The notes: generated from the letters alone by a model not told the origin. A DNA stretch of 64,000 bases from Bacillota bacterium (GCA_044426045.1 JAWXUX010000007.1:26318-90317), one strand, 5' to 3'. Positions 2,387-25,940 are shown, counted from the stretch's first letter. Program-made: numbers and translations.

Positions 2387-2494
2387 TATATAATACCTCC
2401 GAGTATTCTCTTTTTTTACGCAATTTTCTTGCGTGTTATTCTTTTTTTGGTTTTTATTGTCTAAATTTGAAATTTAGATGTTTTTAAAGTTCCC

Positions 2495-6819: not shown

Positions 6820-6917
6820 AATATATATCTCCTTGTCTTATAAAAATATTTTCTTGTTTTGTTTGCAAGTTTTCGCTTGCGTTTTTTTCACTTGCAAGTT
6901 TTCACTCGCTAGTTTTC

Positions 6918-7247: not shown

Positions 7248-7258
7248 AATATATCTCC

Positions 7259-9148
7259 TTATTTGAATTTAATCACTGATTTATATTCAACGTTTTTACC
7301 GATTTCTCTCACCAAGACTGTTGCTCTTGTTCTGTTAACCGGATTATCCATTGTTGTTAGAAGGTAAACTTTTTTGCCTGTTGCATCGATTTCATAAACC
7401 ACTTCAATAGTGCCGTCAGAAACTGTAACAACTGCTTTTCCATCGTGGACAGCAATTTCTTTTGCGTCGATAATGTGTTCATATCCATTAGCATTATAGC
7501 CGAAATCTACTGCTCCGTCAATTGTTTTTGCACTAGCTTTGAAGCTTGCTTCAAAATGTTGCAAGAAATCGCAAGTATTTTCAACTTCGCTGTCAACATT
7601 GAATGTGTCAAGGATAGAATCTTCAGTGATTGTTAAATCTCTTGTGTAGCCAATTCCTTCATAACAGTCAGGTTTTGTTGCTTTCACGTGAGTTGCGCTG
7701 TATTCAACGCATTGACCTGGTGTGAATGACGTGATGTCAACACCATTACAGATAACTGTGTTGTGTGACATTGTTTTTCTGTGCCATTCGTTGCAAAGTC
7801 TTGCTCTGTAACCCGCGTTTGAAGGGTCTCTTGAAACCAAAACGTCATTATATGTGAACTCGATGTTCATGATGTCAGGGTGAGCATGTGATTTTGCATT
7901 CAAACCATATTTCAAGAACAAGTTGAATTTATCGTTTCTAAGCATTGCGTAGTTAGATTTTTCATAGTTCTTTGGTGCTCTTTCAATAGCAGTGTATTTT
8001 GTGAAATCAAAATCGATATTGAAAAGCAATCTTTCAATTGAATGTGTGTTGTTGATATAGAAAGGTTCAGAAAGTGGCAAACCTTGTCTTACAGTTGGTT
8101 TAGATTCGAAGAATTTGAGCATGTTGCCGTATTCACTGTCTTCACCATAAATTCTTGCCATTGCATCGAATTGGTAGCTGTATGTTTTGAGGTTAAGGTT
8201 TGGCCAACCATCGTTTGGATTTGGGAAATAATCGTTGTCAAAGGCATAATGATAGATTTCTTTATACATTTTTTCTACGATTGCTGTTGATTTTGCACCG
8301 AAGTCATAACCGTACAATTTCGCAAATACTACGAGATATGAAACACCTTCAAGAAGGAACATGTTATAGTGAGTTGAACCTTCATACCAGAAACCGTCTT
8401 CTGTTACACCTTCAGCAAGCTGTCTGTGCATACCAAATTCGCCATTGAAAGCAAATTCAACCATTTCTTCGTTTCCGTTAACAAGACCCATAACACCCAT
8501 AACTGCGTCATACCAACATCTGATGTTGTGAACTGATTCAGTTTGTGGTTTCAATACTTTATAAATTTCATTGAACCAGTTGAAGATAACTTCTTTAGTT
8601 TCTTCGTCGATATATTCTTTGATGATTTCGTATGTTTGAGCAACACGGATACCGATGATTGATTCGTTCAAGCCTTGTGGCATGATTCTTGCAGAACCCC
8701 AACCCATTTCTTCAACAGTTTCATAAACGTCAAGTTCTTTTCTGTGAAGTTTGAAGTTTGTGTAGTTTTTGCCATAGAAGTTGATGATCATTTTGACATA
8801 GTCAAGATATTTTTCTTCTTTTGTTGCTTCATAGATTGCTGCTGATGCAAGCATGTTTACGATTGCAGTGTTGCGATAGAAATATGTCCAAACACCGTCA
8901 AGCACGTCGCTTTTGAATGTTTTTCCACAAACTTCACAAACGTGGTCGTGTGGTTTATCAAGATCGAAAATCAATCTTCCGCCATCGTCGTCACAGAAAT
9001 AGTAGTGACCCCATTGGCTCATTTTTTCTGAATCGTCTGAAAAGTTTTCCATAAAAGGAGTAACTTTTTCAATCATGTCGTCCAAAGATGCTTTATACTC
9101 TGGAACTTCGTTCATGTACTTTACAAAATTATCATTAACGTATTTCAT
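7259..9148 (-). CDS. heparinase II/III-like family protein, no signal peptide
   Basis: KSHAHPDIMNIEF and DPSNAGYRARLCNEWHRKTMSHNT motifs. The ATG at 9148 (MKYVND) lies 7 nt after the upstream stop, whereas the tracked start 9187 overlaps the upstream gene. Confidence 0.8.
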   Translation of the reverse strand: MKYVNDNFVKYMNEVPEYKASLDDMIEKVTPFMENFSDDSEKMSQWGHYYFCDDDGGRLIFDLDKPHDHVCEVCGKTFKSDVLDGVWTYFYRNTAIVNMLASAAIYEATKEEKYLDYVKMIINFYGKNYTNFKLHRKELDVYETVEEMGWGSARIMPQGLNESIIGIRVAQTYEIIKEYIDEETKEVIFNWFNEIYKVLKPQTESVHNIRCWYDAVMGVMGLVNGNEEMVEFAFNGEFGMHRQLAEGVTEDGFWYEGSTHYNMFLLEGVSYLVVFAKLYGYDFGAKSTAIVEKMYKEIYHYAFDNDYFPNPNDGWPNLNLKTYSYQFDAMARIYGEDSEYGNMLKFFESKPTVRQGLPLSEPFYINNTHSIERLLFNIDFDFTKYTAIERAPKNYEKSNYAMLRNDKFNLFLKYGLNAKSHAHPDIMNIEFTYNDVLVSRDPSNAGYRARLCNEWHRKTMSHNTVICNGVDITSFTPGQCVEYSATHVKATKPDCYEGIGYTRDLTITEDSILDTFNVDSEVENTCDFLQHFEASFKASAKTIDGAVDFGYNANGYEHIIDAKEIAVHDGKAVVTVSDGTIEVVYEIDATGKKVYLLTTMDNPVNRTRATVLVREIGKNVEYKSVIKFK

Positions 9149-9155
9149 TTTATTC

Positions 9156-11150
9156 TCACCCAATCTCAATAATTTCACTTCCGTCAATTCTCACAACTGC
9201 GTTTGCAGATGAAGAAATCCCAACTGACGCGAAGTCTTTCGCTAGTATTATTTCATATTTTTTAGCTCCGCTGAATGAAGCAATACCATTTTCAACAGCG
9301 TATTTATAATCAGAATTAGAGAACGCAAAACATTCAAGCATAGTTGCATTCTTCACTTTTTCTGAGCTAGTTCTTGTTGTTTTCAAATCAACTTGGCAGA
9401 ACACGTCTGGTTCTTGAGTTGACATGATTGATTTGATTCTTGTTTCGTATTGTTTTTGTGAAACAGCCGCGTCAGCCACAACTTGATAACCAATTTTGCC
9501 ATATGTGCCAAAATCAAAATCCATTGCGTTATCCGCTTTTGGAGCGCCAACTTCATTTGTGTTTAAAATGATTTCATAGCTGTGTTCTTTTTCGCTTTTG
9601 AAAACGTCGACAAATGCGATGAAGTTCAAATTGTCAGTTACAACAGTTCTTGAAACTTCTTTCATTGCGAAGGCTTCAGGATAAATCAAAGTGTTTGTAG
9701 CTTTGAACACTACCATACCATCTTTTTCGTTAACATAATCGACCTTACCGCGGTAAGAATCGAGCAAATCCCAAAGTTTTCCGTTTTCGCCAACTCTTGC
9801 AAGAGCTGCTGTTTTATATGCGTCGTTTCCGCCTTCTGCATCAGTATAGACACCGTCAACAAGCAATGTGCTGTGGTGGTCTGCCATGATTTTACGGTTA
9901 TAACCATCTTCACAGATAAAGTATTCTCTGCCTTGGTTGATTATGTATGACATGTTGTCCGTGTGGTGATGTGAAAGACCGATTGCATCGATGTTTTCAT
10001 CACGCAAAATGCGAAGTGTGTTTTCCCATTGTTTGTCGCCACCTGGTGCGCTGCATTTCATCGAGAAAGTTTTAGCTTCTTCATCCCAACCGCTTCTGAT
10101 TGAAACAAGACCAAGGTCTGGGAAGTATCTCATTTTTGGAAGATCGTCAAGTTCTTTTTCTTCGATTATTGGATCATAGAACAAGAATTCAAGAGCTGCT
10201 TCTGGATAGATACCAGGTTTGATTTTGCTTTCTGCTGCTTCTTCGTCAAGATATTTATCAAGAACTAGATTAGCATATTTTTGAGCATAACCATCGTTAT
10301 ATTCGCTTGCAACTTTGTAATAAACAAATGGGCAGTGACCACTGTGAATATCGTGGCAATCGCCGAAGTTGTGTTGAACTGCAAAGTTACCAGCTGATTG
10401 ATACAATCTGTAGTAGAATGTGTTTTTAAGGTATCCTGAAACTTCAAAGAAGTCCTTTCCGCCTTGCTGTTTAAGAAGATGTGCATAAACAAACAACCAC
10501 ATACCGCCGTATCTCCAATACGCAATACCTTCATAGTTTGAACCGTCTTCTGTCATAAGGTCATAAACGATTTCAAAGTTTTCAAGAGCAAGTGTTGTGT
10601 ATTTAAGGAACGATTTATCTTCTTTTCCAAGAACGTAGCCCGCTGTTGCGATACCGTTCATGTTTATCCAGTTATGGTTTTGATAGTAGTTTGTTGACCA
10701 ACCATGACCGTGTGATTCAATTTTATATTCATATATGATTTCAGCGTGATGAGCAATTTTGTCATACACCGCTTTCTTTTCTTCTGCTGTCAAATAATCT
10801 TTTACCCAGTCGTAGCCAAGTGAAAGACCCCACAAAATCCAAGATGCACTCAAGTCAAGGTTAACCATGTGAGCATTGCCCCATTTTTCGTAACCTAGAA
10901 CAGCACTCATCCATCTTTTTGTTTCTTCAAGGTATTTTTGATCCCCTGACACTCTGAAACCGAGTGCAAGGTTCATGATTGCAATACCCATGAAAGTGAT
11001 TGATTTTGCCGGATGTTCTTTTGGAAGTTCAACTCCCATATATCTGTCACATTGTGCGATAAGTCTTTCATATTGACCTTTTCTCACGCCAGTGATTTCA
11101 GAGATATATTTATCAAGATCCCCAATAAATACCAAGTTGTTATTTTTCAT
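9156..11150 (-). CDS. heparinase II/III-like family protein, no signal peptide
   Basis: GLSHHHTDNMSYII motif. ATG at 11150 (MKNNNLVF) is preceded by AGAGGAAAA. Confidence 0.8.
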   Translation of the reverse strand: MKNNNLVFIGDLDKYISEITGVRKGQYERLIAQCDRYMGVELPKEHPAKSITFMGIAIMNLALGFRVSGDQKYLEETKRWMSAVLGYEKWGNAHMVNLDLSASWILWGLSLGYDWVKDYLTAEEKKAVYDKIAHHAEIIYEYKIESHGHGWSTNYYQNHNWINMNGIATAGYVLGKEDKSFLKYTTLALENFEIVYDLMTEDGSNYEGIAYWRYGGMWLFVYAHLLKQQGGKDFFEVSGYLKNTFYYRLYQSAGNFAVQHNFGDCHDIHSGHCPFVYYKVASEYNDGYAQKYANLVLDKYLDEEAAESKIKPGIYPEAALEFLFYDPIIEEKELDDLPKMRYFPDLGLVSIRSGWDEEAKTFSMKCSAPGGDKQWENTLRILRDENIDAIGLSHHHTDNMSYIINQGREYFICEDGYNRKIMADHHSTLLVDGVYTDAEGGNDAYKTAALARVGENGKLWDLLDSYRGKVDYVNEKDGMVVFKATNTLIYPEAFAMKEVSRTVVTDNLNFIAFVDVFKSEKEHSYEIILNTNEVGAPKADNAMDFDFGTYGKIGYQVVADAAVSQKQYETRIKSIMSTQEPDVFCQVDLKTTRTSSEKVKNATMLECFAFSNSDYKYAVENGIASFSGAKKYEIILAKDFASVGISSSANAVVRIDGSEIIEIG

Positions 11151-11661
11151 TATTTTCCTCTTTGTTTTTTTCTTGATTAGATTTTTCGATTTCTGTCCAA
11201 ACTTTATCCACAATACCCGCGAATAAATTGTAGAAGACTGTGAAGATTAACGCAAACAAAATTGGTTCACCCGCAAGTGCCACCGCATTTTCTTCATACG
11301 TAAAAATACTAAGCAAAACTGTGTTGATGCCCTGATATACTAAAAATACAAGAATTACAATTACTATACACTTAAAAATTTCAGCAAGGGCAAGTCCAAC
11401 ATTAGCAAAAATGCCGCGATCAAAATACTTCTTGTTCTGTATTTTCCCACGGCGTCTTATGTTGAACATGTTGTAAATAATAGGATGGAAAACAAGCACA
11501 TTCAGTATGCCGACACCGACACCGAGGAAAAATATCAAATCGAGAGGGTCTGTATATTCCGCGAGCGAAGTTCCCATCGCAATGAAGAAATAAGTCGCGC
11601 CAACAAACCACCATCTCATGATCGATATTTTAGTCTTATCTGACATATGTTTTTTTTCCAT
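11140..11661 (-). CDS. small integral membrane protein, unknown function
   Basis: About four hydrophobic helices and a Lys/Glu-rich tail. In-operon. Confidence 0.6.
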   Translation of the reverse strand: MEKKHMSDKTKISIMRWWFVGATYFFIAMGTSLAEYTDPLDLIFFLGVGVGILNVLVFHPIIYNMFNIRRRGKIQNKKYFDRGIFANVGLALAEIFKCIVIVILVFLVYQGINTVLLSIFTYEENAVALAGEPILFALIFTVFYNLFAGIVDKVWTEIEKSNQEKNKEENNEK

Positions 11662-11678
11662 CTTATATTATGTTCCTA

Positions 11679-12164
11679 TTAATATAGTTTTTTAGGTTTT
11701 TTGAATGCAGTTGCTGCAATTGCAACAAAAGAAATTCCAAAACCAGCCATCATCACATAAAGGAAGTTCAAACCTTTTTGGACAACAACTTTTGATGCAT
11801 CTGTAATAGCTGTTTGTTGAGTCAAACCATATTGGAATTCCCAAACTAGCAAGTATCCACAAATCAAAACAAGAGCAACACTCAAAAGAGCGATGATAAC
11901 TTTGCTTTTAACGCCTGGTTCAATACGAATTGAAAATACTGCAGCAATGATACTACACAAAACGAAACAGAACATTTTGAAACCAGAGATATTTCTTTCA
12001 AGTTTCAAAAGTGCATCGTTATAGATATCTGCATAAACCAAGTTGATAAGCATGATTACAACGATAAACAATTGCGCAAGTTTAAGCCAAGTGAAATCTT
12101 CCATTTTGTATTTAACACCAGCAACAATTTTGTCACCGATTGATTTAATGTTAATTTTTTTCAT
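11679..12164 (-). CDS. small integral membrane protein, unknown function
   Basis: Four hydrophobic segments; GGGGTGAAG RBS. Confidence 0.6.
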   Translation of the reverse strand: MKKINIKSIGDKIVAGVKYKMEDFTWLKLAQLFIVVIMLINLVYADIYNDALLKLERNISGFKMFCFVLCSIIAAVFSIRIEPGVKSKVIIALLSVALVLICGYLLVWEFQYGLTQQTAITDASKVVVQKGLNFLYVMMAGFGISFVAIAATAFKKPKKLY

Positions 12165-12174
12165 ATCTTCACCC

Positions 12175-13254
12175 CTATTTCAAAACGTTTGATGTGCCTG
12201 GATCAAAGAAGTGAGTTTCTTCCATTTTGATGTGGAAGTTAACTTTATCTTCAGTGTTGAAGCCTCTTGATTGAACTCTTGATTTGAATTCAAGACCATC
12301 AATAGTGATATATAGGCAATAATAGTCACCACAATATTCTCTGATATCAACATTTGCTGTGAAAACATTTGTTTTGTCTTCTTCAGTAGCTGAAACGATA
12401 GATTCTGGTCTCACGCCGAAGATGATATCTTGATCAATATATGATTTTGTGATTTCTTTTTGTTTTTCAGTTAGCTCAACAATGAAATCTTTTGACACAA
12501 ATTTACCATCATGAATTTTGCCACGAACGAAGTTCATTTGTGGTGATCCAATAAATCCACCAACGAATACGTTTGCAGGATTTTGATAGATATCTTGTGG
12601 AGATCCAATTTGTTGGATAACGCCATCTTTCAAAACAACAATTCTGTCAGCCATTGTCATCGCTTCAACTTGGTCATGCGTTACATAAATTGTAGTGATT
12701 GCAAGTTTCTTTTGAAGTTTAACGATTTCTGCTCTTGTTGATGTTCTTAGTTTAGCATCCAAGTTTGAAAGTGGTTCGTCCATAAGGAACGCTTCTGGTT
12801 CACGAGCAATCGCACGGCCAAGAGCCACACGTTGTTTTTGACCACCAGAAAGTTGTCCTGGGACACGTTTCAAATAATCTGTTATGCCAAGGAAATCTGA
12901 AGTTTCCATAACTTTGTCATGAATATCAACGTCGTCAGTGTGACGAACGATCATACTCATACCAACGTTATCGTAGTTTGTAAGGTTACCATAAAGCGCG
13001 TAATCTTGGAATACGAATGAGATATCTCTATCTACTGGTGCTTTATTGTTAACTTTTTTATCTGCGATATAAAGGTCACCTGCTGAAATTTCTTCAAGCC
13101 CAGCAAGCATTCTCAAGATTGTAGATTTTCCACAACCTGATGGTCCAACGAATACAATGAATTCGCCATCTTCTATTTCAAGATTGAAATCGAAAACTGC
13201 TTGAACATTGCCTGGATAAATCTTGTCAATATGTTCAAATCTTATTGCTCCCAT
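12175..13254 (-). CDS. sugar ABC transporter ATP-binding protein (MsmK/MsmX/UgpC-like)
   Basis: GPSGCGKST, LSGGQKQRVALGRA and FLMDEPLSNLD motifs, plus a C-terminal TOBE-like region. Start overlaps the upstream stop (TAATG). Confidence 0.9.
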   Translation of the reverse strand: MGAIRFEHIDKIYPGNVQAVFDFNLEIEDGEFIVFVGPSGCGKSTILRMLAGLEEISAGDLYIADKKVNNKAPVDRDISFVFQDYALYGNLTNYDNVGMSMIVRHTDDVDIHDKVMETSDFLGITDYLKRVPGQLSGGQKQRVALGRAIAREPEAFLMDEPLSNLDAKLRTSTRAEIVKLQKKLAITTIYVTHDQVEAMTMADRIVVLKDGVIQQIGSPQDIYQNPANVFVGGFIGSPQMNFVRGKIHDGKFVSKDFIVELTEKQKEITKSYIDQDIIFGVRPESIVSATEEDKTNVFTANVDIREYCGDYYCLYITIDGLEFKSRVQSRGFNTEDKVNFHIKMEETHFFDPGTSNVLK

Positions 13255-13718
13255 TATTCAACCCTCTCTTTCGATTTAATAAGTTTTGTTCTGTCAGCTA
13301 TTCTTTTGTAGCTTATAACGCTTGCAACGAAAAGTAACACTGCTGTCACAATGATCATTGCATAAATTGATGTTAGTTTTCCTGTTGGTTGCAAGATAAC
13401 TGGAACAACAAAAAGTGCTCTCACTACCATATAAATACCAAAACCAGTTGCAGCTTTTGTCCAGCCAATACTGTAGATATTCACACGAACCGCTGTTGTG
13501 AACAATACGAATAGTACTGCAATGTTAAACATTGTTATAGCACCCATCATATAGTTTGTAGCAATATTACCAAGAATAACGATTGTGTAGATCAATTCAC
13601 TTAGAATTGAAAACAAAATCATTGAATATGGCAATTTGTTATTTTTGAAAAGTGAAACTTCAACAAGTTTATCTTTTCTTTCAGCTGGGTTATAATTTGC
13701 TTTCATTTTTTGTTTCAT
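13254..13718 (-). CDS. small integral membrane protein, unknown function
   Basis: Four TM segments. In-operon. Confidence 0.6.
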   Translation of the reverse strand: MKQKMKANYNPAERKDKLVEVSLFKNNKLPYSMILFSILSELIYTIVILGNIATNYMMGAITMFNIAVLFVLFTTAVRVNIYSIGWTKAATGFGIYMVVRALFVVPVILQPTGKLTSIYAMIIVTAVLLFVASVISYKRIADRTKLIKSKERVE

Positions 13719-13735
13719 GCTAATCCCCCCACTTC

Positions 13736-14290
13736 TTACGCTTCTACTTCAGCTTGTTTCGCTAGCTTCAAGAAACCAAAATGGTTCTTAGCCATGATAA
13801 AGCCTAGAAGTGCTGTTGATATAATTTGCAATGCATATACTACCCAACCAACATAGAATGCTGTGTATTTTCTGATATGAGCCGTACCACCTTCATCGTC
13901 TACCCATGAAGTGTCAAGGCCATCATAAACATTGTACAAGCTTGTCACTTGCAACAAATTGTAGATTGCACTACCAATGAGAACTGCAAACAATACGCAC
14001 AAAACAATCAATGCGAATTTATCAGCAACTTTCGTTCTAACTTCCATCAACATTGCGAAAACAGCAGTTAAAATAGCCACAACACCAAACTTAAAGAAAA
14101 TTTGGTTAGCTGGTTGCATCATATCATCATGGAAATCAGCCACAAGCTTGTTTTCAGTGTATCTGTTACCGACAAGACCGAACAAATCTTGGTAGTCTGT
14201 CATGAAATATAAAGAAAATACAAATACGAGCAAAGATATTGCCGCAAACAAAAAGAACGCATTCCTTTGTTTTTTCATATTATTTTGCAT
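13736..14290 (-). CDS. small integral membrane protein, unknown function
   Basis: Four TM segments; AAGGAG RBS. Confidence 0.6.
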   Translation of the reverse strand: MQNNMKKQRNAFFLFAAISLLVFVFSLYFMTDYQDLFGLVGNRYTENKLVADFHDDMMQPANQIFFKFGVVAILTAVFAMLMEVRTKVADKFALIVLCVLFAVLIGSAIYNLLQVTSLYNVYDGLDTSWVDDEGGTAHIRKYTAFYVGWVVYALQIISTALLGFIMAKNHFGFLKLAKQAEVEA

Positions 14291-14386
14291 TTTATTCTCC
14301 TTTTACCTAGTAATTTCTTATTTATTTGGAAGGGGAACAAGTCCCCTTCCTCAATAAAATTTCTCTTGTTTTAATATTTTTAAATA

Positions 14387-16420
14387 TTAGTTACCTGACA
14401 TTGCTGCATATGCATCTTGGTATGTTGAAACATAAATTTCAAGACCAGCGTCAAGGTACAATTGATAGAATTCATCGAAAGTTGTTGCAACTACTGTACC
14501 AGTTGGAGCATTTCCAAGAGTGTAGTATTGGATGATGTTGAAGATGTATTCGCCAACTTCATCAGTTTCGATAGTTGTGTTTTCCAAAGCTTCTGTTTGA
14601 CGAGTTGTCATAGAGAATGCTGGTGGTTGCATTTTAGAGTAGTATTCACTACCGTTTGAGTTATCAGTTTCGTCACCGGCATATGAAGAATATACCATGT
14701 TAGAATTGTTTACGATTTCCCAAGATGCGAAACCTTGTGCACCAGTTGTTTGATATTCCATACCGATTTCTTTAACGAAACCTACTGCCATGATTGCACC
14801 AACATAGTCACGAAGGAATGTTGAAGCATCACCTGAAGTGAATGTGTTTGCAGCTTCCCAAGTCCAATCAGAAAGAAGTGGGTATTCAACGCCGTCTGGT
14901 CCGATGTAGTATTCACCTTCAACGATATCCATTGGAAGACCGTAGTTAGCGATGTCTGAACCTTCTTCGCTGAAGAAGAAGTCGAACAATTCAAGTGCTG
15001 CATCTTGTTCTGCTTCAGTTGCTGAAGAAGAGATTGACCAACCATCTGGTTTGATAGCACGAGTATTTTCGTTGTAGTATTGCCATGTTCCGTTGATTTC
15101 AGCAACTGGACACATAACAACTGTTACGCCTTCGTTCAATGATTCACTTGTTGTTGAAGAGATCCAGTCATAAGTCATGAAACCGAATGATGGGTTATCA
15201 GAGTCGTCAGAACCGTAAAGTGTAGTTCTGTATACAGCTGAGTTAGATTCATCATAAGTATCTGAATAGAATAGACCTTCAGCCCACATTTCAGAAAGTT
15301 TTAGAAGACCGTTGTAGAATTCTTCTTGAGTGTATGTGTAGTAGATTTCGCCGTTTTCGTCGAAGCACCACAATGCTGAGTATGAGTCAGAACCGTTAAC
15401 TTTAACACCGTCATAGTAAGTGATAAGTTTCAAAGTATCTTCTCTGTATTTTGAGTATCTTGTGAAGAATGGCCATACTTCTGAAGCTGCGCCATCAGTC
15501 AAAAGAGTTGGGTTTGCTTTAACAACACGAAGAAGAGCTACTAGTTCGTCGATATCGTATGCTGCACTTGTACCAAGGTAAAGTTCAGATGGATCATCGT
15601 ATTGTGGGTAGTTTCTTTCGATATATGATACCAATGCAGTAGCAAGAGTTTCACCATTTGCAACGTCAAGCGCGTTCATGATGTCGATGATGCTTTCATC
15701 AGTTTCTTTAGTGATATAAACGCCTTCAGATGGGTTTACAGTTCCGCCGTATTCACCAGTTCTAGCATTGTCGCCAGTGTAGAATGCAGTGTAGTACAAA
15801 GTCATTTCAGTTGCAGTGTCATAAGTTGTTGTATCAACATCGTCAAGCAATGTAGTGATCCATTCATAACGTGCAACGTAATGTCTAGCTGAGTTACCGA
15901 TTTCTGCAGTGTATGGTACGTGGTAGATTTCACCATCGTATGCAGTGATTGCAGATTCAACGTCTGGGTTTGCAGCAAGGAATGCAGCGAAGTTAGGCAT
16001 TTTGCCTGCATCGATTGCATCAGACAAGCTGATGAAGTATCCAGCAGCACCATAGTTGATAAGGTCTGTTGCGATTGAGTTACCACCGTATACAGTTGCG
16101 TCTGTGAAACCAGTTGTTGAAGCAGTTGCGATCATATCGTCTGCATCAGCATCTTGAGTTGTCACGTCGACAAATTCGTAACCGAAGTATTCTGCAAGAT
16201 ATGACCATACTGGTTTCAACATACCTTGTGTGATAACAGTGCCGTCTGACAATGTCATTGGGCTAGTTTGGTTGTATGTCATAGTTCTTGATGAGTTACC
16301 GAAACCTACGCTGAATTTAACTGTTACAGTTTCTTCAGTAGTTGAACTGCTTCCGCAGCCGGCAAAGCAAGAAAGAACGAGACAAAGTACCAATAGCAAA
16401 GCTAATTTTTTTCTCATCAT
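14387..16420 (-). CDS. large extracellular solute-binding lipoprotein of an ABC sugar importer (LplA-like)
   Basis: Lipoprotein signal MMRKKLALLLVLCLVLSCFAGCGSS. 677 aa. Adjacent to the two permease genes. Confidence 0.85.
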   Translation of the reverse strand: MMRKKLALLLVLCLVLSCFAGCGSSSTTEETVTVKFSVGFGNSSRTMTYNQTSPMTLSDGTVITQGMLKPVWSYLAEYFGYEFVDVTTQDADADDMIATASTTGFTDATVYGGNSIATDLINYGAAGYFISLSDAIDAGKMPNFAAFLAANPDVESAITAYDGEIYHVPYTAEIGNSARHYVARYEWITTLLDDVDTTTYDTATEMTLYYTAFYTGDNARTGEYGGTVNPSEGVYITKETDESIIDIMNALDVANGETLATALVSYIERNYPQYDDPSELYLGTSAAYDIDELVALLRVVKANPTLLTDGAASEVWPFFTRYSKYREDTLKLITYYDGVKVNGSDSYSALWCFDENGEIYYTYTQEEFYNGLLKLSEMWAEGLFYSDTYDESNSAVYRTTLYGSDDSDNPSFGFMTYDWISSTTSESLNEGVTVVMCPVAEINGTWQYYNENTRAIKPDGWSISSSATEAEQDAALELFDFFFSEEGSDIANYGLPMDIVEGEYYIGPDGVEYPLLSDWTWEAANTFTSGDASTFLRDYVGAIMAVGFVKEIGMEYQTTGAQGFASWEIVNNSNMVYSSYAGDETDNSNGSEYYSKMQPPAFSMTTRQTEALENTTIETDEVGEYIFNIIQYYTLGNAPTGTVVATTFDEFYQLYLDAGLEIYVSTYQDAYAAMSGN

Positions 16421-16450
16421 TTTTCTCCTTTTGATAGATATAATAATTTT

Positions 16451-16610
16451 GGGTGCATCTGAAAAATATTAATGCAAAGATTAGTTTCAAAAATTGAGTG
16501 TATTTTTTGCAATGTTTCGAAAAAATACTGGTTGTATTTTGAGAAATCTTGCAGAAAATCAAGCCAATTTTGGGAATTAAGATTTGCGTTTATATTTTTT
16601 TGAGGTGCCC
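16451..16610 (-). repeat. MITE-like palindromic intergenic element, copy 1 (inverted relative to copy 2)
   Basis: Ends are GGGTGCATCTGAAAAA and TTTTTTTGAGGTGCCC. The reverse complement aligns along its length with 21646-21826. The tracked ORFs 16335..16562(-) and 21694..21957(+) share the MIFCKIS opening only because of this repeat. Confidence 0.75.
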
Positions 16611-16615
16611 TATCT

Positions 16616-17479
16616 TTATCCTTTAACGCCACCCATGTTAACACCTTTTGCAAAGTATTTTTGGATGAACGGATAAATCACTAGAATTGGGATGATTGAA
16701 CATATGATAATCGCATATGCCAAACTGTCCGCTGAATACGCAAGTACAACTGAAGATTCTTCATAAATCTTTTGATAGTTTTCAATCAATTGTCTTAGGT
16801 ATACTTGAAGGTTTTGGTCATAGGCATCAGCAAGCAACATTCTTGACCAGTAGTATCCATTCCATCTTGATACTGCGTAGAACAAAGTTACAGTTGCGAT
16901 TGACGCTTTTGACATTGGAACGTAGATTTTAGCAAACAATTGGAATTCGTTTGCACCATCAACGATTGCTGCTTCTTCCATTTCTTTCGGAATACTTGAG
17001 AAATAGTTACGAAGCAAGATAATGTTGTATGCTTGAATACCGAAGGCAAGAACGATTCCCCATCTGCCATTGACACCCATAGATGTGTAGTTGATGTAGA
17101 GTGGGATCATACCAGCTGTGAACCACATTGTGAACACAAGAAGGAAGTTGAACTGTCTTCTGAACATTAGCTTAGATTTTTGAAGTGCATATGCACCCAT
17201 AAGTGAAATTGCCATACTGTAAGCAGTACCAGACAATGTATAGAACAAAGTGTTTGCGTAAGTGATCCAGAACGCTTTATCCATAAGAACGATTTCATAC
17301 GCTTGGTATGTCACGTCAACTGGCCACAAGATAACTTGACCTGTTTCGTATGCTAGTTTACCTGAAATAGATACGCTGAATGCGTAGATAATTGGGTAAA
17401 GGGCACATAGCGAGAACAAAATAACAAGAGAGTATGCCAAAATTTTAAATATGATTTCTGATTTATTAAGTCTATTCAT
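16616..17479 (-). CDS. carbohydrate ABC transporter permease (LplC/YtcP-like)
   Basis: Six-TM MalG-type permease. ATG at 17479 with GAGGAG 9 nt upstream; the tracked start 17485 is TTG. Confidence 0.85.
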   Translation of the reverse strand: MNRLNKSEIIFKILAYSLVILFSLCALYPIIYAFSVSISGKLAYETGQVILWPVDVTYQAYEIVLMDKAFWITYANTLFYTLSGTAYSMAISLMGAYALQKSKLMFRRQFNFLLVFTMWFTAGMIPLYINYTSMGVNGRWGIVLAFGIQAYNIILLRNYFSSIPKEMEEAAIVDGANEFQLFAKIYVPMSKASIATVTLFYAVSRWNGYYWSRMLLADAYDQNLQVYLRQLIENYQKIYEESSVVLAYSADSLAYAIIICSIIPILVIYPFIQKYFAKGVNMGGVKG

Positions 17480-17497
17480 TTTCAACCACTCCTCTTC

Positions 17498-18463
17498 TTA
17501 CCACAATGATGTTTTAGAAATACTTCTACTGATTGTGTTAGCTGCAATAACAAGCGCAAAGGCTATCATTGAGTTGAACAGTGATGCCGCGGCACCCAAT
17601 CCGTAGTTACCATAGATGATACCGATACGTTGTTCAAATGTTGACAAAACGTCGGCAGTCACGAATGTACTTGTATCATAAAGCAAAAGAACACGTTCGT
17701 AACCAATTGTTAGCATGTTACCAATTCTCATGATGATCATGATGATTAGCGTTGGAGCCATACCAGGGATTGTTACGTATTTGATTTCTTGCATTTTGTT
17801 ACCACCATCAACACGAAGTGCTTCGTAAAGTGCTGGTGAAATACCCATGATTGCAGCGAAGTATACGATTGAACTGTAACCAGATTCTTTCCAAATACCT
17901 GTGATTACATATATTGGGCGGAAGTAGTTAGATGATTTTATGATTGATGTTCCAACTGGAACAATTCCTGTGTCATACAAAAGTTGTGCAACCACACCTG
18001 TTGATTGAGCGCCGGAATAAACCAACATCAGTACGATACCTGTTATTGATACTTCTGAAAGGAAGTGAGGTAGGTATGTGATTGTTTGTGTGATTTTTCT
18101 CACAAAGCCTGAGCCGATTTCACTGAAGAACAAAGCGAGGATGATTGGTATTGGGAAACCAAACACCAACGAATACGCACTGATAACAAAAGTGTTACGG
18201 AACGCCTGCCAGAAAGCAACTTTGTTTACACCATTAACTAGGTTAGCAAAGTTTGCAAATCCTCTGAATTCACTTGCCCACATACCAATTGAAGAGTCAA
18301 AACGCTTGAATGCGATTATCAACCCGCCCATTGGTTTGTATGCCCAAATAGCCATCCAGACGATAAGTGGTAATAAAAGAACGTACAAACGCCAGTCTTT
18401 AAGAACTGCTTTGACGATCGTTTTAAATTTTCCATTTCTCATTTCTACATTTGTGTTTTGCAT
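17498..18463 (-). CDS. carbohydrate ABC transporter permease (LplB/YteP-like)
   Basis: MalF-type permease. ATG at 18463 (MQNTNVEM) is preceded by GAGGT and lies 1 nt after the upstream TGA. Confidence 0.85.
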   Translation of the reverse strand: MQNTNVEMRNGKFKTIVKAVLKDWRLYVLLLPLIVWMAIWAYKPMGGLIIAFKRFDSSIGMWASEFRGFANFANLVNGVNKVAFWQAFRNTFVISAYSLVFGFPIPIILALFFSEIGSGFVRKITQTITYLPHFLSEVSITGIVLMLVYSGAQSTGVVAQLLYDTGIVPVGTSIIKSSNYFRPIYVITGIWKESGYSSIVYFAAIMGISPALYEALRVDGGNKMQEIKYVTIPGMAPTLIIMIIMRIGNMLTIGYERVLLLYDTSTFVTADVLSTFEQRIGIIYGNYGLGAAASLFNSMIAFALVIAANTISRSISKTSLW

Positions 18464-18464
18464 T

Positions 18465-19004
18465 TCAAACCTCATCATTTACTAAGTCATATTTTTCCAT
18501 ATCCACAACCAATCCATTGACTGCCCTCAAAAGGAAGACTGCCAAAATATCAATTGTAATTATAAATAAAGTAGAAGCCAGATAATCTATTGCTCCTGTA
18601 TAAGCTCCTTCGATTATAAAAATCGCAATCCCCTTACCTATACAAAGGGAAAGATGTGAAGCTATCAGAAAACCAAGATATTTAAGCTTTCCTTTAATTA
18701 TCAAGTTTCTGTCGCGTTTCCAATATATAAAGAATGGAAGTGCGAAAAACATTCCTGCACCAACTTCATAAATCACAAAATTGATAAAAGACATATCAGT
18801 TGTGAAATAAAGCAAGCAGTTTGATATCAAAAGCGATATCGCACCGTATCTCCCCCAACGCATGAGAACAACGAATAGCACCACCCATTTTAATGTGTAA
18901 AAATAAGGCGTGTCCATCGAATTCCCAAATTTGACACTGAGAAAGTTAGCAACTGTTGCAAGAACGGCAAAAATGAATATATCTATATTTCGAAATTGTT
19001 TCAT
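18465..19004 (-). CDS. integral membrane protein, unknown function (first gene of the transporter operon)
   Basis: 179 aa with 5-6 hydrophobic helices. Confidence 0.6.
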   Translation of the reverse strand: MKQFRNIDIFIFAVLATVANFLSVKFGNSMDTPYFYTLKWVVLFVVLMRWGRYGAISLLISNCLLYFTTDMSFINFVIYEVGAGMFFALPFFIYWKRDRNLIIKGKLKYLGFLIASHLSLCIGKGIAIFIIEGAYTGAIDYLASTLFIITIDILAVFLLRAVNGLVVDMEKYDLVNDEV

Positions 19005-19323
19005 TTTTATTCCTTTGTTGATTTTCCGAAAATCGAATACCCGCCACCCAAATACCCATCGCCCTTAGGGTGTATAATTCCCCAAAGATTGCCTCTTGGG
19101 GGATATATATTTGATTTTTGTTATGTATCAACAATATTAAATTTAGTATTTACCTATTCAGTACAATTTTCTGCCAATTTGTGTCGCAAAATTCTACATG
19201 GTGTTTTTTGACATATTGGCGTTTTTGAAATTCATATATATGAATAAGATTTATATCTATTCTATTTTAGCATATCGTTTTAATCTTGTCAATAGCAATT
19301 GCAAAAAAAATTATATTTTTTGT

Positions 19324-19429
19324 ATACTTTTTATGTACATTTTGCATTTAATTTTCCCAAAAGTACCATGGCCGAAAATTATACATTTTTTTGATATGCG
19401 GTATGTACATTTATCGATACTTTTTATGT
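19324..19429. promoter_or_regulatory. candidate operator repeats
   Basis: ATACTTTTTATGT occurs at 19324-19336 and 19417-19429. TATGTACATTT (contains the palindrome ATGTACAT) occurs at 19332-19342 and 19402-19412. Confidence 0.3.
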
Positions 19430-19431
19430 GG

Positions 19432-20181
19432 TTAACTGAAATACCCGAGTTGGATAGATATCTTTTCAGCGGCGATTTTAAGTTCCAGTGCCATCTGCTC
19501 AACATCCTCTCCTTCACGATATAAGTCGGAAAGGGATATGGCGGCAACAACCTTGCCTGTGTAGTCAAAAATTGGTGCGGCGCAACAAGAAAGCATTGTG
19601 TCGTTTTCTCTATCGTCAAGCGAATACCCTTTTTTCTTTGTTTCGGTGAGTTGCGTTTCAAGCCTTTCTCTTGAAGTGATTGAATTTTCCGTCGCTGGCT
19701 CGAAATCGATTTTCTCAAGCAGTTCGCAAAGAAGTTCCTTGCTGAGGTTTGCCATAATGGCTTTTCCAAGCGCTGTTATGTGGGCGCGTTTTCTTGAACC
19801 GAGATCGCAAGAGGCAAGCCTCACGCCATCGGCGACGTATTTATGTATGTAGACAATAGATCTGCCACTGAGCACGCCAACAAAACCTGTCTTGCCATAT
19901 TTATCAGCAAGTGGGTCAAGCTGTTGCGCACATTGCGAAACCACGTCCAAATCATTGACGTATTGCATGCCGAGAGTGAATGCTTCAAGCCCTAGGCGAT
20001 ATTTTTTATCATTGTACCTGCTTGGCACGATGAAATTTAGCTCGAGCAATGTTTGCAATATAACAAACGCACTGCTTTTTGGCACTTCGAGGTGCTCTGC
20101 AATGGTTTGCAAAGTCACGCCGTCCTTGTTCTTGGCAACAAACTTCATCATCTGCGCCGATCTCAAAACTGTCCTGTTCAT
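19432..20181 (-). CDS. IclR family transcriptional regulator (KdgR-like by context)
   Basis: wHTH LQTIAEHLEVPKSSAFVILQTL plus an IclR effector domain. ATG at 20181 is preceded by AGGGGAAAT. Confidence 0.85.
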   Translation of the reverse strand: MNRTVLRSAQMMKFVAKNKDGVTLQTIAEHLEVPKSSAFVILQTLLELNFIVPSRYNDKKYRLGLEAFTLGMQYVNDLDVVSQCAQQLDPLADKYGKTGFVGVLSGRSIVYIHKYVADGVRLASCDLGSRKRAHITALGKAIMANLSKELLCELLEKIDFEPATENSITSRERLETQLTETKKKGYSLDDRENDTMLSCCAAPIFDYTGKVVAAISLSDLYREGEDVEQMALELKIAAEKISIQLGYFS

Positions 20182-20405
20182 ATTTCCCCTGTGTTGATGT
20201 GTATTTTTATTACCACCGTTTTCTCTCATCTTTTCAAACTGTAGTATATATTTTCCGCCACAGCTTAATCTCATCTTTTAACTGCGACATATTTTCATTT
20301 ATTATAGTATTTTTATATTTTCATTTGCACATGTTTTCAAATTTGCATTTTTGCATTTTAACATACTTGCATATTTGCATTAGTGCTGACATTCCATTTG
20401 ACAAA

Positions 20406-21350
20406 TTAAAAAATCATCAAGATTTTTGCCACATAAATCAGCACAAAAAGTGACAATGTGGAAAAAAGCGTTGTTGAAGCGACTATGCCCCCAGCGAGTT
20501 CAGCATCGGCACCTTGTTCTTGCGCCATGATGTAACTTGACACCGCAACTGGCGTTGCAAACACAATAAGAACGATTGCAAACATTTCCTCCCTGTAGCC
20601 AAGGAAATAGAAGATTGTGCAAATAATCCCAGGAACTACAACCAAACGAAGAATTGTTCCAATCAAGATGTTCCATTTATCTGCTCTGAGTTTATCAAGT
20701 TTCAAATTGCCACCCAAACAAATCATTGCAAATATAGTTGCGATTGAAGAGACGTTCGAAAGCGTTTTTTCAATCATATATGGAAGCTCGATATTAATAG
20801 CAAGCACAACAAGCCCGAGCACACTTGCAATAATCAACGGATTTTTGCAAATTTTTATTATCATATTTTTCACGCCACCAGTTTTGCCAGTTTGCGAATA
20901 AAATTCCAAGATAAATGTGGCATAAACATTGAACGTTCCCACAACTAGCGCCAAATAGCAAGAAACCATCGCAACGCCGGTGTCACCATAAAGGCTTGAC
21001 ATCAAATATGTTCCAAATAAAACGAAGTTTGAACGAAAGCCCGCTTGGATGATTACGCTGAGTTTTCTCACGTCTTTATAAATAAACCTGAAAATAAACC
21101 AACATCCCAAAAACGCACCAGTGATTGATGCAAGCAATTGAAGTGCAAAAGTCACGTCGAAATTTGCAACATCCCTGCCGTTATAGATATTCAAAAAGAG
21201 CATCACAGGAAGCAAGACCGTGAAAGACAACTTGTTTCCACTTTTCAAAAATTCCTCGCTGACAATTTTTTTCTTAGTGCAAAATGCCCCAAGCAAAATG
21301 AGGAAAAACAGTGGCAACACTATATTCGCGGTAAAAAGCAACTCTTCCAT
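20406..21350 (-). CDS. AEC (auxin efflux carrier) family transporter
   Basis: Ten-TM profile with a typical AEC-type N-terminus MEELLFTANIVLPLFFLILLGAF. Confidence 0.85.
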   Translation of the reverse strand: MEELLFTANIVLPLFFLILLGAFCTKKKIVSEEFLKSGNKLSFTVLLPVMLFLNIYNGRDVANFDVTFALQLLASITGAFLGCWFIFRFIYKDVRKLSVIIQAGFRSNFVLFGTYLMSSLYGDTGVAMVSCYLALVVGTFNVYATFILEFYSQTGKTGGVKNMIIKICKNPLIIASVLGLVVLAINIELPYMIEKTLSNVSSIATIFAMICLGGNLKLDKLRADKWNILIGTILRLVVVPGIICTIFYFLGYREEMFAIVLIVFATPVAVSSYIMAQEQGADAELAGGIVASTTLFSTLSLFVLIYVAKILMIF

Positions 21351-21559
21351 TTATTCATACTCCTAAATCATTTTTATAATTATAAACTTACATCCACCAT
21401 TATAAACCAAGTTTAAACAAAATGCAATACCTTTTTTTAAATTATTTTGATGTTTTTAAAACTTTTTTCGTACCTTTCAATCACCCCCAATCATTTACCA
21501 TAAAAAAAAGCATCTGTATCTCCAAAGGAAATAAAGATGCTTGATTTTCATTATATATG

Positions 21560-21594
21560 CATTTTACATTTTGCATTTTACATTTTGCATTTTG
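21560..21594. repeat. tandem heptad repeat (CATTTTR)x5
   Basis: Read directly from the sequence. About 210 nt upstream of the AEC transporter start. Confidence 0.6.
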
Positions 21595-21645
21595 CAAATT
21601 TGAATACATGTTGATATATTCACATGCACAGTTGCAAATATTTAA

Positions 21646-21826
21646 GGGAACTTCTAAAAACTCTTAACGCAAATCTTAATTCCCAAAAAAGGCTTGATTT
21701 TCTGCAAAATTTCTCGTCGCGAGCGAAGCGACACGCCTGAATATACCCGATATTACTTCGAAATATTGCAAAAAATACGCACTTTTTTTGAAATTAATCT
21801 TTGGTCAATACTTTTTAGAAGTGCCC
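21646..21826 (+). repeat. MITE-like palindromic intergenic element, copy 2
   Basis: Terminal inverted repeats GGGAACTTCTAAAAA and TTTTTAGAAGTGCCC, flanked by TTAA on both sides. Abuts the putP stop. Carries an extra GC-rich insert CGTCGCGAGCGAAGCGACACGCC. Confidence 0.75.
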
Positions 21827-21830
21827 TTAA

Positions 21831-23330
21831 TTATTCAGCGATGAATTCAACAACTTTGTCAAATTCTTCTTGCATTTCAGCTTCTGGTTCTTTATCGAGA
21901 AGTGTCACAACGACAATCGCGATAAGAGAAACGACGAACGCTGGCAAAAGTTCATAAACCGAGAAAATTCCGCCGACAGTTGTTTTCAAGAAGTAGAACA
22001 CGATTGAACCAATACCACCAGAGCAAATACCCCAAACGGCAGCTTTTCTTGTCATGCGTTTCCAATAGATACTCATAACAACAGTTGGACCAAACGCGGC
22101 ACCAAGACCAGCCCACGCAAAGCTTACAATGCCAAATACTGAACTGTTTGGATCAAGTGCAAGCAAAACGGCAAGAAGTGCAACGACAACTACGCTTATT
22201 CTGCTCACCCAAACAACTTCTTTATCTGACGCGTCTTTTTTGATAAGACCTTTATAAAAGTCGGATGCGATAACTGAAGATGTAACCAAAAGTTGAGAAT
22301 CAGCTGTTGACATGATTGCCGCAAGAACTGCAGAAATCAATATACCCGCAATGATTGCAGGGAAGAATTCATAAATCAAAACAATGAAGATTGTTTCTTC
22401 GGCGCCTGAGGCGAGAAGTCCGCCAGTTGACGATAGATAAACTTTACCAAACATACCAACCAAAACTGCAAAGGCAAGAGAGATAACAACCCAAACCATA
22501 GCAATCACAGTTGCAGGCTTAACTTCTTTTGGCGATTTGATTGCCATGAATCTTGCAAGGATGTGTGGTTGACCGCAATAGCCAAGCCCCCAAGCAAGAG
22601 AGGAGAAGATAAGAAGCCATGTAACAGTTCCGCCACTTGGGAAGAAATTCCAAGCACCTTCTTCAAGCATTGCAAATGTCGCTTCCGCACCACCGAGGTT
22701 TGTCACCACGATAACAGGAACAACGATGATTGCAATAAACATCAAAATGCCTTGCATAACATCAGTGAAACAAACTGCCATGAATCCGCCAAGGAATGTG
22801 TAGGCAATGATGATAATCGAGCTTATGATTAGCGCTGTTGTGTATTCAACAGGGAAAATTTGCATGAATAATTTTGCACCTGCGGCAAACATTGAAGACG
22901 TGTAGACAACAAAGAAGAACACGATTGCAATACCAGTTGCAGTTCTGATGATTTTTGTTGTGTCTTTGAATCTGTTTTCAAAATAGTCAGGCAATGTCAA
23001 AGCGTTTCCTGAAATTTCAGTGTAGCCACGAAGTCTTTTTGCAACGAACATCCAGTTTAGAAGTGTTCCCACAGCAAGACCAATTGCTGTCCACCAAGCT
23101 TCAAGCGAGCCAGCAAGTGAAAGATAGGCAAGCCCAGGAAGCCCCATAAGAAGCCATCCGCTCATGTCTGACGCTTGCGCACTTAGCGCTGAAGTCCAAA
23201 CATTGAGTTTTCTGCCACCGAGAATATAGTCTTGCGCATTCTTATTTTTATTATAATAATATGCACCAATACCAATCATCAGTAAAAGATAAAGTATTAT
23301 GACCGTTAGAATTGTTGATTGTTCTGTCAT
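21831..23330 (-). CDS. putP: sodium:proline symporter (SSS family)
   Basis: DYILGGRKLNVWTSALSAQASDMSGWLLMGLPG is the typical PutP motif. Confidence 0.9.
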   Translation of the reverse strand: MTEQSTILTVIILYLLLMIGIGAYYYNKNKNAQDYILGGRKLNVWTSALSAQASDMSGWLLMGLPGLAYLSLAGSLEAWWTAIGLAVGTLLNWMFVAKRLRGYTEISGNALTLPDYFENRFKDTTKIIRTATGIAIVFFFVVYTSSMFAAGAKLFMQIFPVEYTTALIISSIIIIAYTFLGGFMAVCFTDVMQGILMFIAIIVVPVIVVTNLGGAEATFAMLEEGAWNFFPSGGTVTWLLIFSSLAWGLGYCGQPHILARFMAIKSPKEVKPATVIAMVWVVISLAFAVLVGMFGKVYLSSTGGLLASGAEETIFIVLIYEFFPAIIAGILISAVLAAIMSTADSQLLVTSSVIASDFYKGLIKKDASDKEVVWVSRISVVVVALLAVLLALDPNSSVFGIVSFAWAGLGAAFGPTVVMSIYWKRMTRKAAVWGICSGGIGSIVFYFLKTTVGGIFSVYELLPAFVVSLIAIVVVTLLDKEPEAEMQEEFDKVVEFIAE

Positions 23331-23405: not shown

Positions 23406-23549
23406 AGTGAATAGTGAATGGTGAATAGTGAATAGTGAAGGTAAGCACTCCGCTTCGCCTCGTGCATACTATATTAAAATAATGGAAAGCACGAGGCGTA
23501 GCCGAGTGCATTACCACCACTATTCACTATTACTTATTCTCTATTCACT
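23406..23549. repeat. heptad-armed long hairpin element, copy B
   Basis: Arms are (GTGAATA/GTGAATG)x5 plus GCACTCCGCTTCGCCTCGTGCA, against GCACGAGGCGTAGCCGAGTGCA plus complementary TATTCAC-type heptads. 22-nt AT-rich loop. Confidence 0.8.
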
Positions 23550-25595: not shown

Positions 25596-25718
25596 ATCAC
25601 ACCACCGTTTTTTCTATCTTCGTTTTTTACTATCTTATATGATAACATATTGGGGGAGAGATTGTCAAATGGCACGCAGTTAGGGTTTTGGGGAGCAGAG
25701 TTTTTGGGACGCTGTTTT

Positions 25719-25925: not shown

Positions 25926-25940
25926 AGCGAAGCGTTTCAC

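Follow-up and report, generated by a model that had tools for sequence, protein, structure and literature searches.

What kind of sequence is the 160-nt palindrome that separates two genes of an ATP-binding cassette (ABC) transporter operon in a 64,000-nt stretch of DNA from a Bacillota bacterium (GCA_044426045.1 JAWXUX010000007.1:26318-90317, hereafter the window), and is it there as a mobile repeat or as a regulatory part of that operon? A second, inverted copy is found in the same window, and a reading made from the sequence alone (the sequence-only reading) had proposed either a non-autonomous mobile element or a structured RNA controlling the expression of the adjacent genes. In this work, we describe these two copies, c1 and c2, together with related sequences at two further loci. 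They probably belong to an undescribed family of dispersed repeats, about 160 nt long, non-coding, A+T-rich and palindromic over their whole length, of the same kind as the ERIC, YPAL and bcr1 miniature inverted-repeat transposable elements (MITEs). The family occurs in a narrow group of uncultured gut-type Bacillota. Closely related genomes differ from one another by gain or loss of the element at individual sites, and its hairpin has been maintained through compensatory changes; mobilisation would occur in trans, by means of an enzyme encoded elsewhere.

Copies of the element and their empty sites

The reverse complement of c1 aligns end to end with c2 (82.4% identity over 159 ungapped columns), as the sequence-only reading had reported, and the four common blocks it quoted all exist, far beyond chance when compared with shuffled sequences: block TAACGCAAATCTTAATTCCCAAAA has one mismatch in c1 and no match in the shuffles, and block GGCTTGATTTTCTGCAA is exact in both copies. 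The single large difference between c1 and c2 is a 22-nt insert of the latter, located at the hairpin apex and forming a side hairpin which contains GCGAAGC. A repeat scan of the window returned the pair as two inverted-repeat segments. Throughout the text, the top strand is the one reading AACGCAAATC..., and the bottom strand is its complement, which forms the stronger hairpin; coordinates are collected in Table 1.

Two related metagenome-assembled genomes (MAGs) were compared with the window. In the first, represented by contig JAWXUW010000003.1 of the 'Bacillota bacterium' MAG GCA_044426065.1, the binding protein encoded beside c1 is identical to that of the window; since the two DNAs are 99.1-99.9% identical, and yet not the same sequence, the window is another strain or assembly of the same species. 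The second, GCA_044426085.1, hereafter the sister MAG, encodes a binding protein 84% identical and a kinase 98% identical to those of the window, and one of its contigs contains the whole locus with the ABC transporter and sodium:solute symporter (SSF) genes, in the same gene order.

In the sister MAG, neither window site contains the element. At site 1, the gap between the permease and binding-protein genes measures 32 nt, versus 195 nt in the window, and the sister sequence reads GGATAA-TAAAT-ATTATTATATC, versus GGATAA-AGATA-[element]-AAA-ATTATTATATC. At site 2, the gap between the SSF and the AEC transporter genes measures 278 nt, versus 480 nt, with AATAA-TAA-ATTTGC in the sister MAG and AATAA-TTAA-[element]-TTAA-ATATTTGC in the window. 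Because these sites are empty, c1 and c2 are not conserved at orthologous positions; c1 may represent the insertion of 160 nt into a former permease/binding-protein spacer of 32 nt.

The family comprises five sequences at four loci, namely c1, c2, c3, and c4 with its orthologue c4', ranging in size from 159 to 181 nt. c3 was identified by scanning one genome per species with an element 20-mer, GCAAATCTTAATTCCCAAAA. Only one of the four matches is a real copy: it is located in contig JAWXUU010000020.1 of the sister MAG, in the spacer that follows a pnuC-type transporter gene and precedes a glyoxalase-family gene, directly downstream of a promoter-like TTGCAA-17-TATGAT. The Pedobacter match agrees over the 20-mer alone, and the Polaribacter and Caenarcanales matches contain no copy according to R1, a covariance model built from c1-c3. 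The same model was used to find c4, which lies between the KDPG-aldolase (eda) and KDG-kinase (kdgK) genes in JAWXUW010000003.1 and in a Logan contig, and is 74-79% identical to the other copies; c4' occupies the same site in the sister MAG. The copy closest to c2 is c3, from another species and another locus (85.5%, versus 82.4% for c1/c2).

As to density, about 73 kb of the source species hold three loci, and 57 kb of the sister MAG, chosen independently of the element, hold one (c4'), plus c3. R1 recognised no other copy when applied to the remainder of the window, to an additional 22 kb of the sister MAG and to a more distant relative; in the window, the repeat scan and a pattern search likewise gave no full copy beyond c1 and c2. 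Three matches obtained in a metagenome scan with TTCCCAAAANNGGCTTGATTTTC fall within high-G+C, unrelated contexts and are not recognised by R1; one of them, with a few extra bases in common with c3 (GGCTTGATTTTCCGTAT) and no second arm, was judged to be a chance match. Two Logan contigs, each from a different sequencing run, terminate within the element (L010, 1-26, and L017, 1-48), which suggests that assemblers break at the repeat.

Site 4 is polymorphic even among near-identical genomes. In JAWXUW010000003.1, the left end of c4 provides the final codons and the stop of the aldolase gene (...KGNFQNI*), and a copy of the native aldolase 3' end, GAAGGAAACTTCAGTAAATAA, is found immediately beyond c4. 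In the sister MAG, AA and then a 35-nt sequence, R, come after c4'; R resembles at its start the left end of the element. The window features the native aldolase end (...KEGNFSN*) directly followed by R, with no full element. Contigs L018-L021, which are more distant, contain neither the element nor R, site 4 being empty in L018, L019 and L020; the contigs lacking both sequences include those from two other assemblies, whose kinase is 99% identical. An old insertion beside an end-like sequence, followed by deletions between the short direct repeats GG(A/G)AACTTC, could have produced these alleles; the window allele may also be an assembly artefact.

All four sites are intergenic, lie among unrelated genes, and in three cases out of four abut or overlap a stop codon. 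Terminal inverted repeats, claimed for the window copies, were indeed recognised: they match at 14 of 16 positions in c2 (GGGAACTTCTAAAAAC vs GGGCACTTCTAAAAAG), are perfect over 18 bp in c3 (GGGGGTTTCTAAAAAGT) and imperfect in c1 and c4. The degenerate consensus GGGYRC proposed for the ends is only approximate, c2 reading GGGAAC. TTAA is found on both sides of c2 and AT on both sides of c3, either of which could be due to chance in A+T-rich DNA.

The element has no coding capacity. Two open reading frames (ORFs) of the window beginning with MIFCKIS had been regarded as artefacts of the repeat, and this is borne out: both start at the same TTG, within GGCTTGATTTTC of the repeat, the reading frames of the element are disrupted in most copies, and the six-frame translations of three copies, searched as a concatenated protein query, have no relative at E <= 1 among 5.8 billion proteins. 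No match to the element was found at the nucleotide level either, by blastn in 'distant' mode against phage and plasmid collections, by blastn with word size 11 against E. coli (20,395 records, 5,426 genomes), hence no similarity to ERIC, or in three pattern scans of viral contigs. The whole window gave no Rfam match at gathering thresholds; at E <= 10, c2 retrieved only plant miRNA-precursor hairpins, scoring 15-25 bits versus thresholds of 90-211.

Several generic features of bacterial MITEs are present: a size below 300 bp, the lack of coding function, terminal inverted repeats, and empty and filled sites in relatives. The proposal of a non-autonomous mobile element is supported by these data, given the empty sites 1 and 2 of the sister species, the copies at two unrelated loci, the site polymorphic among near-identical genomes, the absence of coding capacity and the terminal inverted repeats; the family neither consists of just two copies at conserved orthologous positions nor corresponds to an Rfam entry. 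By sequence, the element is not a member of the ERIC, YPAL or bcr1 families.

Other types of element were considered and rejected. An integron attC site is not compatible with the lack of a RYYYAAC/GTTRRRY core, with the mutual inversion of c1 and c2 and with flanks made of syntenic operon genes rather than cassettes. A composite transposon or an invertible segment bounded by c1 and c2 is contradicted by the sister MAG, in which gene content and gene order of the 5-kb segment are unchanged although the repeats are missing, and by the identical orientation of the segment in two other assemblies of the source species.

Hairpin structure, strand asymmetry and competing explanations

As predicted by the sequence-only reading, c1 and c2 each fold into one long imperfect hairpin, with energies far below those of dinucleotide shuffles on both strands. 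For c1, RNA folding gives -63.4 kcal/mol for the bottom (+) strand (z -8.95) and -33.9 kcal/mol for the top (-) strand (z -4.7); for c2, -67.9 kcal/mol for the bottom (-) strand (z -8.0) and -50.0 kcal/mol for the top (+) strand (z -6.3). In an alignment of four copies, the consensus hairpin contains 66 pairs, 96.2% of the cells being paired, and 17 of the 66 pairs are altered on both sides. These values were never reached in 500 shuffles, and pairing dropped to 35-63% when partners were slid by 1-3 columns. Conservation is highest in the mid-stem blocks, which are nearly invariant among copies, and lowest at the termini and at the apex.

The two strands are not equivalent. In all five sequences the bottom strand is more stable than the top one, by 15-31 kcal/mol as RNA and still by 7-13 kcal/mol with DNA energy parameters, and bottom-strand z-scores range from -8 to -9.5. 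The asymmetry is due to the type of mismatch: G·U pairs occupy 22 cells in 14 columns on the bottom strand and one cell on the top strand, and the bottom strand also contains a conserved tandem G·A internal loop and two invariant U·G pairs. When the arms of mismatch columns were swapped at random, the observed energy difference was reached in 0 of 400 trials for c1, in 3.5% for c2 and in 0.75% for c3, i.e. p < 0.0025, 0.035 and 0.0075, respectively, in the three copies tested. The same asymmetry is displayed by c4, which was discovered after the hypothesis had been formed.

A local mutation bias was examined as a cause of the asymmetry and rejected: c1 and c4 have the opposite orientation to c2 within a region of uniform GC skew, on one replichore, the C-rich strand of c1 coincides with the G-rich strand of the genome, and at three loci of four it is the top strand that is sense. 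The bottom strand is accordingly antisense to the neighbouring genes at these three loci, and sense only at c2. c1 and c4, both located within operons with the top strand sense, show the largest asymmetry of the family. Selection against a long perfect RNA duplex within the sense transcript would be in keeping with this, but does not account for the unchanged polarity of c2.

Between the orthologues c4 and c4', identity is 95.0%, whereas it amounts to 81-85% at third codon positions of the pfk and kinase genes that flank them and to 87.7% in the adjacent intergenic stretch. Of the eight substitutions, four form two adjacent double changes which keep pairing (A-U to G-C, U-A to G·U); among the remaining ones, one turns a G·U into an A-U pair, one leaves the bases paired by a shift of register and one falls within a loop. 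No bottom-strand pair is broken.

The pfk-eda-kdgK segment in which c4 lies (L012/L016, ~6340-11020) is 91% identical between the two species, and the DNA on either side 83-85%; recent interspecies recombination may have involved this segment.

Several of these observations weigh against a MITE-like family. Transposase genes were not found in about 200 kb sampled from two species. The copy number is apparently low, as a 20-mer common to c1-c3 was found once in the whole sister MAG. Classical MITEs have conserved ends, while this element varies most at its termini and least in its mid-stem. A clear target-site duplication is missing at c1 (AGATA|...|AAAAT) and at c4 (AAAAA|...|TGAAG), and sites 1 and 2 might have been emptied by loss in the sister species, instead of being filled by gain in the window. 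Finally, the low divergence of c4/c4', with pairing kept, looks like constraint rather than junk, within the limits of small numbers.

If the family has been selected for bottom-strand folding, as the asymmetry suggests, this would point to a single-stranded stage, DNA or RNA, in its propagation or function. A bolder reading, which is rather unlikely, is that of a strand-specific hairpin element which, instead of being junk transported in double-stranded form, acts or propagates as a single strand, either as an RNA or as a single-stranded DNA hairpin handled by a structure-specific enzyme, under purifying selection in place. Such an element would be a Bacillota counterpart of the REPIN-like symbiotic elements, or a domesticated structured module. 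It would entail a new recognition logic, in which the part played elsewhere by conserved ends falls to a conserved mid-stem with a tandem G·A loop and G·U pairs that do not vary.

Alternatively, the family could be mainly a functional bottom-strand structure, either a small or antisense RNA or a hairpin of single-stranded DNA bound or cut by a protein of the host or of the element, selected in situ and only secondarily spread. The strand distribution of G·U columns (14 bottom, 1 top), the two invariant G·U pairs and the G·A loop, the low bottom-strand z-scores, the near invariance of the mid-stem, the exclusion of a local mutation bias, and the structure-preserving changes of c4/c4', more conserved than synonymous sites, are all in keeping with this explanation, which we nevertheless consider rather unlikely. 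Neither a promoter nor a terminator is conserved on the bottom strand at any copy, the neighbouring genes are unalike (ABC permease/binding protein, SSF symporter, pnuC/glyoxalase, eda/kdgK), sites 1 and 2 are empty in a species endowed with the same operon, and just five sequences are available. Moreover, double compensatory changes in DNA palindromes can arise by template switching, without selection (PMC8794818), a process which leaves unexplained the low overall divergence of c4/c4'.

Doubtful, to a larger degree, is a REPIN-like variant of the mobile-element reading, moving as a hairpin of single-stranded DNA through a HUH/Y1 enzyme (RAYT or IS200/IS605-like) rather than a DDE transposase, and leaving no target-site duplication. 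The persistence of the asymmetry under DNA energy parameters, the lack of duplication at c1 and c4 and, weakly, the TT at -4/-3 before the bottom-strand GGG in all four copies would agree with such a movement, as would the compensatory changes of the hairpin and the insertion beside an existing copy (c4' and R in the sister MAG), both of which have been described for REPINs (PMC3116915). However, the element is most variable precisely at its ends, while REPINs consist of conserved REP ends and a less conserved spacer (PMC3116915), the GTAG/CGTC tag is absent, no Y1 transposase or RAYT gene was found in the ~200 kb of sampled DNA, and the orientation of the copies is not uniform relative to replication.

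A MITE-like family thus remains the preferred reading. It adds a family from an uncultured Bacillota lineage, and accounts for two spurious ORFs, for the long spacer of an alginate-uptake operon and for contig breaks in the assemblies of this lineage; model R1 can be used to mask or trace it. Natural filled and empty alleles inside operons are ready controls for the effects of a 160-nt hairpin on polar expression and mRNA processing. Should the strand asymmetry and the slower-than-synonymous divergence be confirmed in additional copies, they would speak for a single-stranded stage or for a function at the level of the host, a question still open for most bacterial palindromic repeats.

Flanking genes and other features of the window

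Table 1. Features of the element family and its surroundings; positions refer to the window, and energies to RNA folding of the bottom and top strands.
Feature	Position	Strand	Energy, bottom (kcal/mol)	Energy, top (kcal/mol)	Description
c1	16451..16610	+ = bottom (stronger-folding) strand	-63	-34	160 nt, whole-length imperfect palindrome; top strand = -, sense with the ABC operon
c2	21646..21826	- = bottom (stronger-folding) strand	-65 to -68	-48 to -50	181 nt, inverted relative to c1; flanked on both sides by TTAA
c3			-67	-51	
c4			-63	-36	
c4'			-67	-36	
Apex insert TCGCGAGCGAAGCGACACGCCT	21717..21738	no strand			22 nt, G+C-rich, c2 only (alignment gaps and fold)
Remnant R GGGAACTTTAAAAACATCTAAATTTCAAATTTAGAC	2459..2494	-			36 nt; 23 nt at its start match the left end of c4; immediately follows the KDPG-aldolase stop
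ABC permease gene (BPD_transp_1)	16616..17485	-			stop codon at 16616-16618, 5 nt from c1
AlgQ1/AlgQ2-like solute-binding lipoprotein gene	14387..16420	-			677 aa; start at 16420, 30 nt from c1
Sodium:solute symporter (SSF) gene	21831..23330	-			stop codon 4 nt (TTAA) from c2
Mem_trans/AEC transporter gene	20406..21350	-			downstream of c2; own promoter-like site at 21379-21406
Sigma-70-like motif TTGAAA-16-TATTTT	16463..16490	-			right arm of c1, facing the binding-protein gene
Spurious ORF 'MIFCKIS...'	16335..16562	-			75 aa; start = TTG within GGCTTGATTTTC of the repeat
Spurious ORF 'MIFCKIS'	21694..21957	+			87 aa; start = same repeat TTG within GGCTTGATTTTC

The genes neighbouring c1 and c2 are all located on the - strand. 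c1 occupies the gap between the permease stop and the binding-protein start, as had been described. The 677-aa lipoprotein encoded downstream has no match in Pfam or NCBIfam; it is a homologue of AlgQ1/AlgQ2 (E = 5e-30), which bind alginate, so that the label of binding protein is correct. c2 lies within the 3' untranslated region of the SSF gene, before its terminator, with the bottom strand sense. No intrinsic terminator is predicted at any copy of the element; the sole terminator-like site near c4 is outside of it.

The element would be co-transcribed with the neighbouring genes. The operon mRNA carries the top strand of c1, i.e. the weaker hairpin, and the c1 region, when placed in its mRNA context, folds no better than shuffled sequences (z = -1.2). 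The Shine-Dalgarno region of the binding-protein gene lies outside the hairpin, is not sequestered, and coincides with that of the empty-site species except for one C/T substitution upstream of the motif. The sigma-70-like motif in the right arm of c1 has a counterpart in c4, TTGAAA-16-TATATT, pointing at the kinase gene, and is missing from c2 and c3 because of a 1-nt deletion; it is a consensus match only, with a frequency no higher than in shuffled sequence. For the bottom strand, no promoter is conserved across copies. A TATAAT on the + strand, 7 nt upstream of c1, is part of the flanking sequence, and the empty site has it too.

That the element is a locus-specific cis-regulatory RNA of the alginate ABC operon, setting the expression of the binding protein versus the permeases, is very improbable and largely refuted by the empty orthologous site: the position of c1 between these genes, the lack of a predicted terminator and the stability of the hairpin would suit such a role, but in the sister species this operon has a 32-nt spacer that lacks the element, the other copies lie at unrelated genes in either orientation, the mRNA bears the weaker strand, and neither the fold in mRNA context nor the accessible Shine-Dalgarno region supports it. 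REP sequences in the E. coli malEFG operon are a classical precedent for an intercistronic regulatory hairpin; regulation of this one locus, which the sequence-only reading had envisaged, is not the reason for the presence of the element. Under the MITE-like reading, c1 would bring into the polycistronic mRNA a hairpin of moderate stability (-34 kcal/mol), perhaps together with a promoter-like motif directed outwards. An altered binding-protein/permease ratio, if any, would be a side effect of insertion, brought about by the hairpin or by the motif; judging from the sequence, a modest rise in binding-protein expression or an mRNA processing site at c1 is possible.

The operon is part of a cluster for the utilisation of alginate and unsaturated uronates, at positions 4400-19000, also found on contigs L001 and L012. 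Besides the AlgQ-like binding protein, two permeases and a MalK-like ATPase, it encodes a DSE-like_N protein, heparinase II/III-type lyases, a KdgF-like cupin, a short-chain dehydrogenase, PFK, KDPG aldolase, KDG kinase, and three small proteins (179, 184 and 154 aa) without family match. Direct repeats ATTTTACATTTTGCA are found upstream of the AEC gene (21544-21600) and upstream of the ABC operon (19315-19349), where they adjoin a gene for an IclR-family regulator (19432-20274), of which they may be the candidate operator. Just upstream of the Shine-Dalgarno sequence of the kinase gene, a hairpin between A-runs, ACGCAAGAAAATTGCGT (window 2387-2458; L012 9952-9970), is kept in all five genomes compared, and obtains a terminator score only on the strand opposite to the genes.

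A separate family of palindromic repeats, the first one listed by the sequence-only reading, is located at 1118-1329, 23406-23549 and 25717-25926. These repeats consist of four tandem heptamers A(A/G)GTGAA, inverted around G+C-rich cores (GCACTCGCTCGCTCGTGC ... GCACGAGGCGAAGCCGAGTGC). The mnmA/SSF spacer holding the second of them measures 301 nt in the window, versus 132 nt in the sister MAG, and this family therefore also looks insertion-polymorphic. The GCGAAGC mini-hairpin motif is found both in its core and in the 22-nt apex insert of c2.

A low-G+C (30-35%) island extends over positions ~37400-56800. It contains genes for a helix-turn-helix regulator, Fic, DarT with a macro domain (DarTG-like), a PLD nuclease, an AEP-TOTE primase-helicase, a DprA-like protein, a DEAD helicase, RhuM, Bro-N and ParA, and for a large serine recombinase (50468-51991), the sole recombinase of the window, which thus lies inside a region unrelated to the element. 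The island is probably an integrated element carrying defence systems. Finally, five to six tandem copies of a 39-42-nt unit are found at 35320-35550, inside an ArsP_1-type permease gene (34738-35994, - strand).

Relation to known repeat systems

Among known families, ERIC (or IRU, 127 bp) is alike in being a small, non-coding, intergenic imperfect palindrome over its whole length, and unlike in sharing no sequence similarity and in residing in a different phylum; the copy number of the element, moreover, seems low. ERIC duplicates TA at the target. De Gregorio et al. are said to have observed in 2005 that ERICs tend to lie at or over stop codons. ERICs are often co-transcribed, have an orientation-dependent effect on the flanking mRNA and can fuse to ORFs (PMC2229807).

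The YPAL (RU-2) repeats of Yersinia, 168 bp long and palindromic throughout, have nearly the same size. That they are mobile was deduced by comparing sister species, in which sites are filled or empty; their duplications, of 3-26 bp, are irregular, targets adjoin regions of dyad symmetry, and some repeats are fused to ORFs (PMC2229807), which is comparable to c4 providing the last codons of the aldolase gene. In contrast to the element, YPAL lacks an A+T-rich composition and has internal inverted repeats; sequence and host are unrelated.

bcr1, of about 155 bp, shares both the host phylum, being found in the Bacillus cereus group, and a similar size. Its distribution is not conserved between close strains, and it is transcribed, with compensatory changes keeping the structure at the RNA level (PMC3184786). 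The element described here differs in forming a single hairpin of 65-70 bp, without regular duplications.

Correia (NEMIS) repeats of Neisseria and the RUP elements of S. pneumoniae are also MITEs, of 100-155 bp, able to form long RNA hairpins. Correia transcripts are substrates of RNase III, and Correia sequences can carry promoter motifs (PMC2229807). Both families differ from the element in their conserved terminal inverted repeats (24 bp and 9 bp, respectively) and in the duplication of TA, and RUP also in its proposed partner, IS630-Spn1.

REPINs, at last, are alike in forming a hairpin in single-stranded DNA or mRNA, in their frequent compensatory changes and in the appearance of new copies beside existing ones (PMC3116915). 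They sit alongside a single-copy RAYT gene and feature conserved REP ends and a variable spacer (PMC3116915), a pattern of conservation which is reversed in the element; a movement of the REPIN type would fit both the strand-specific constraint and the lack of duplications at c1 and c4.

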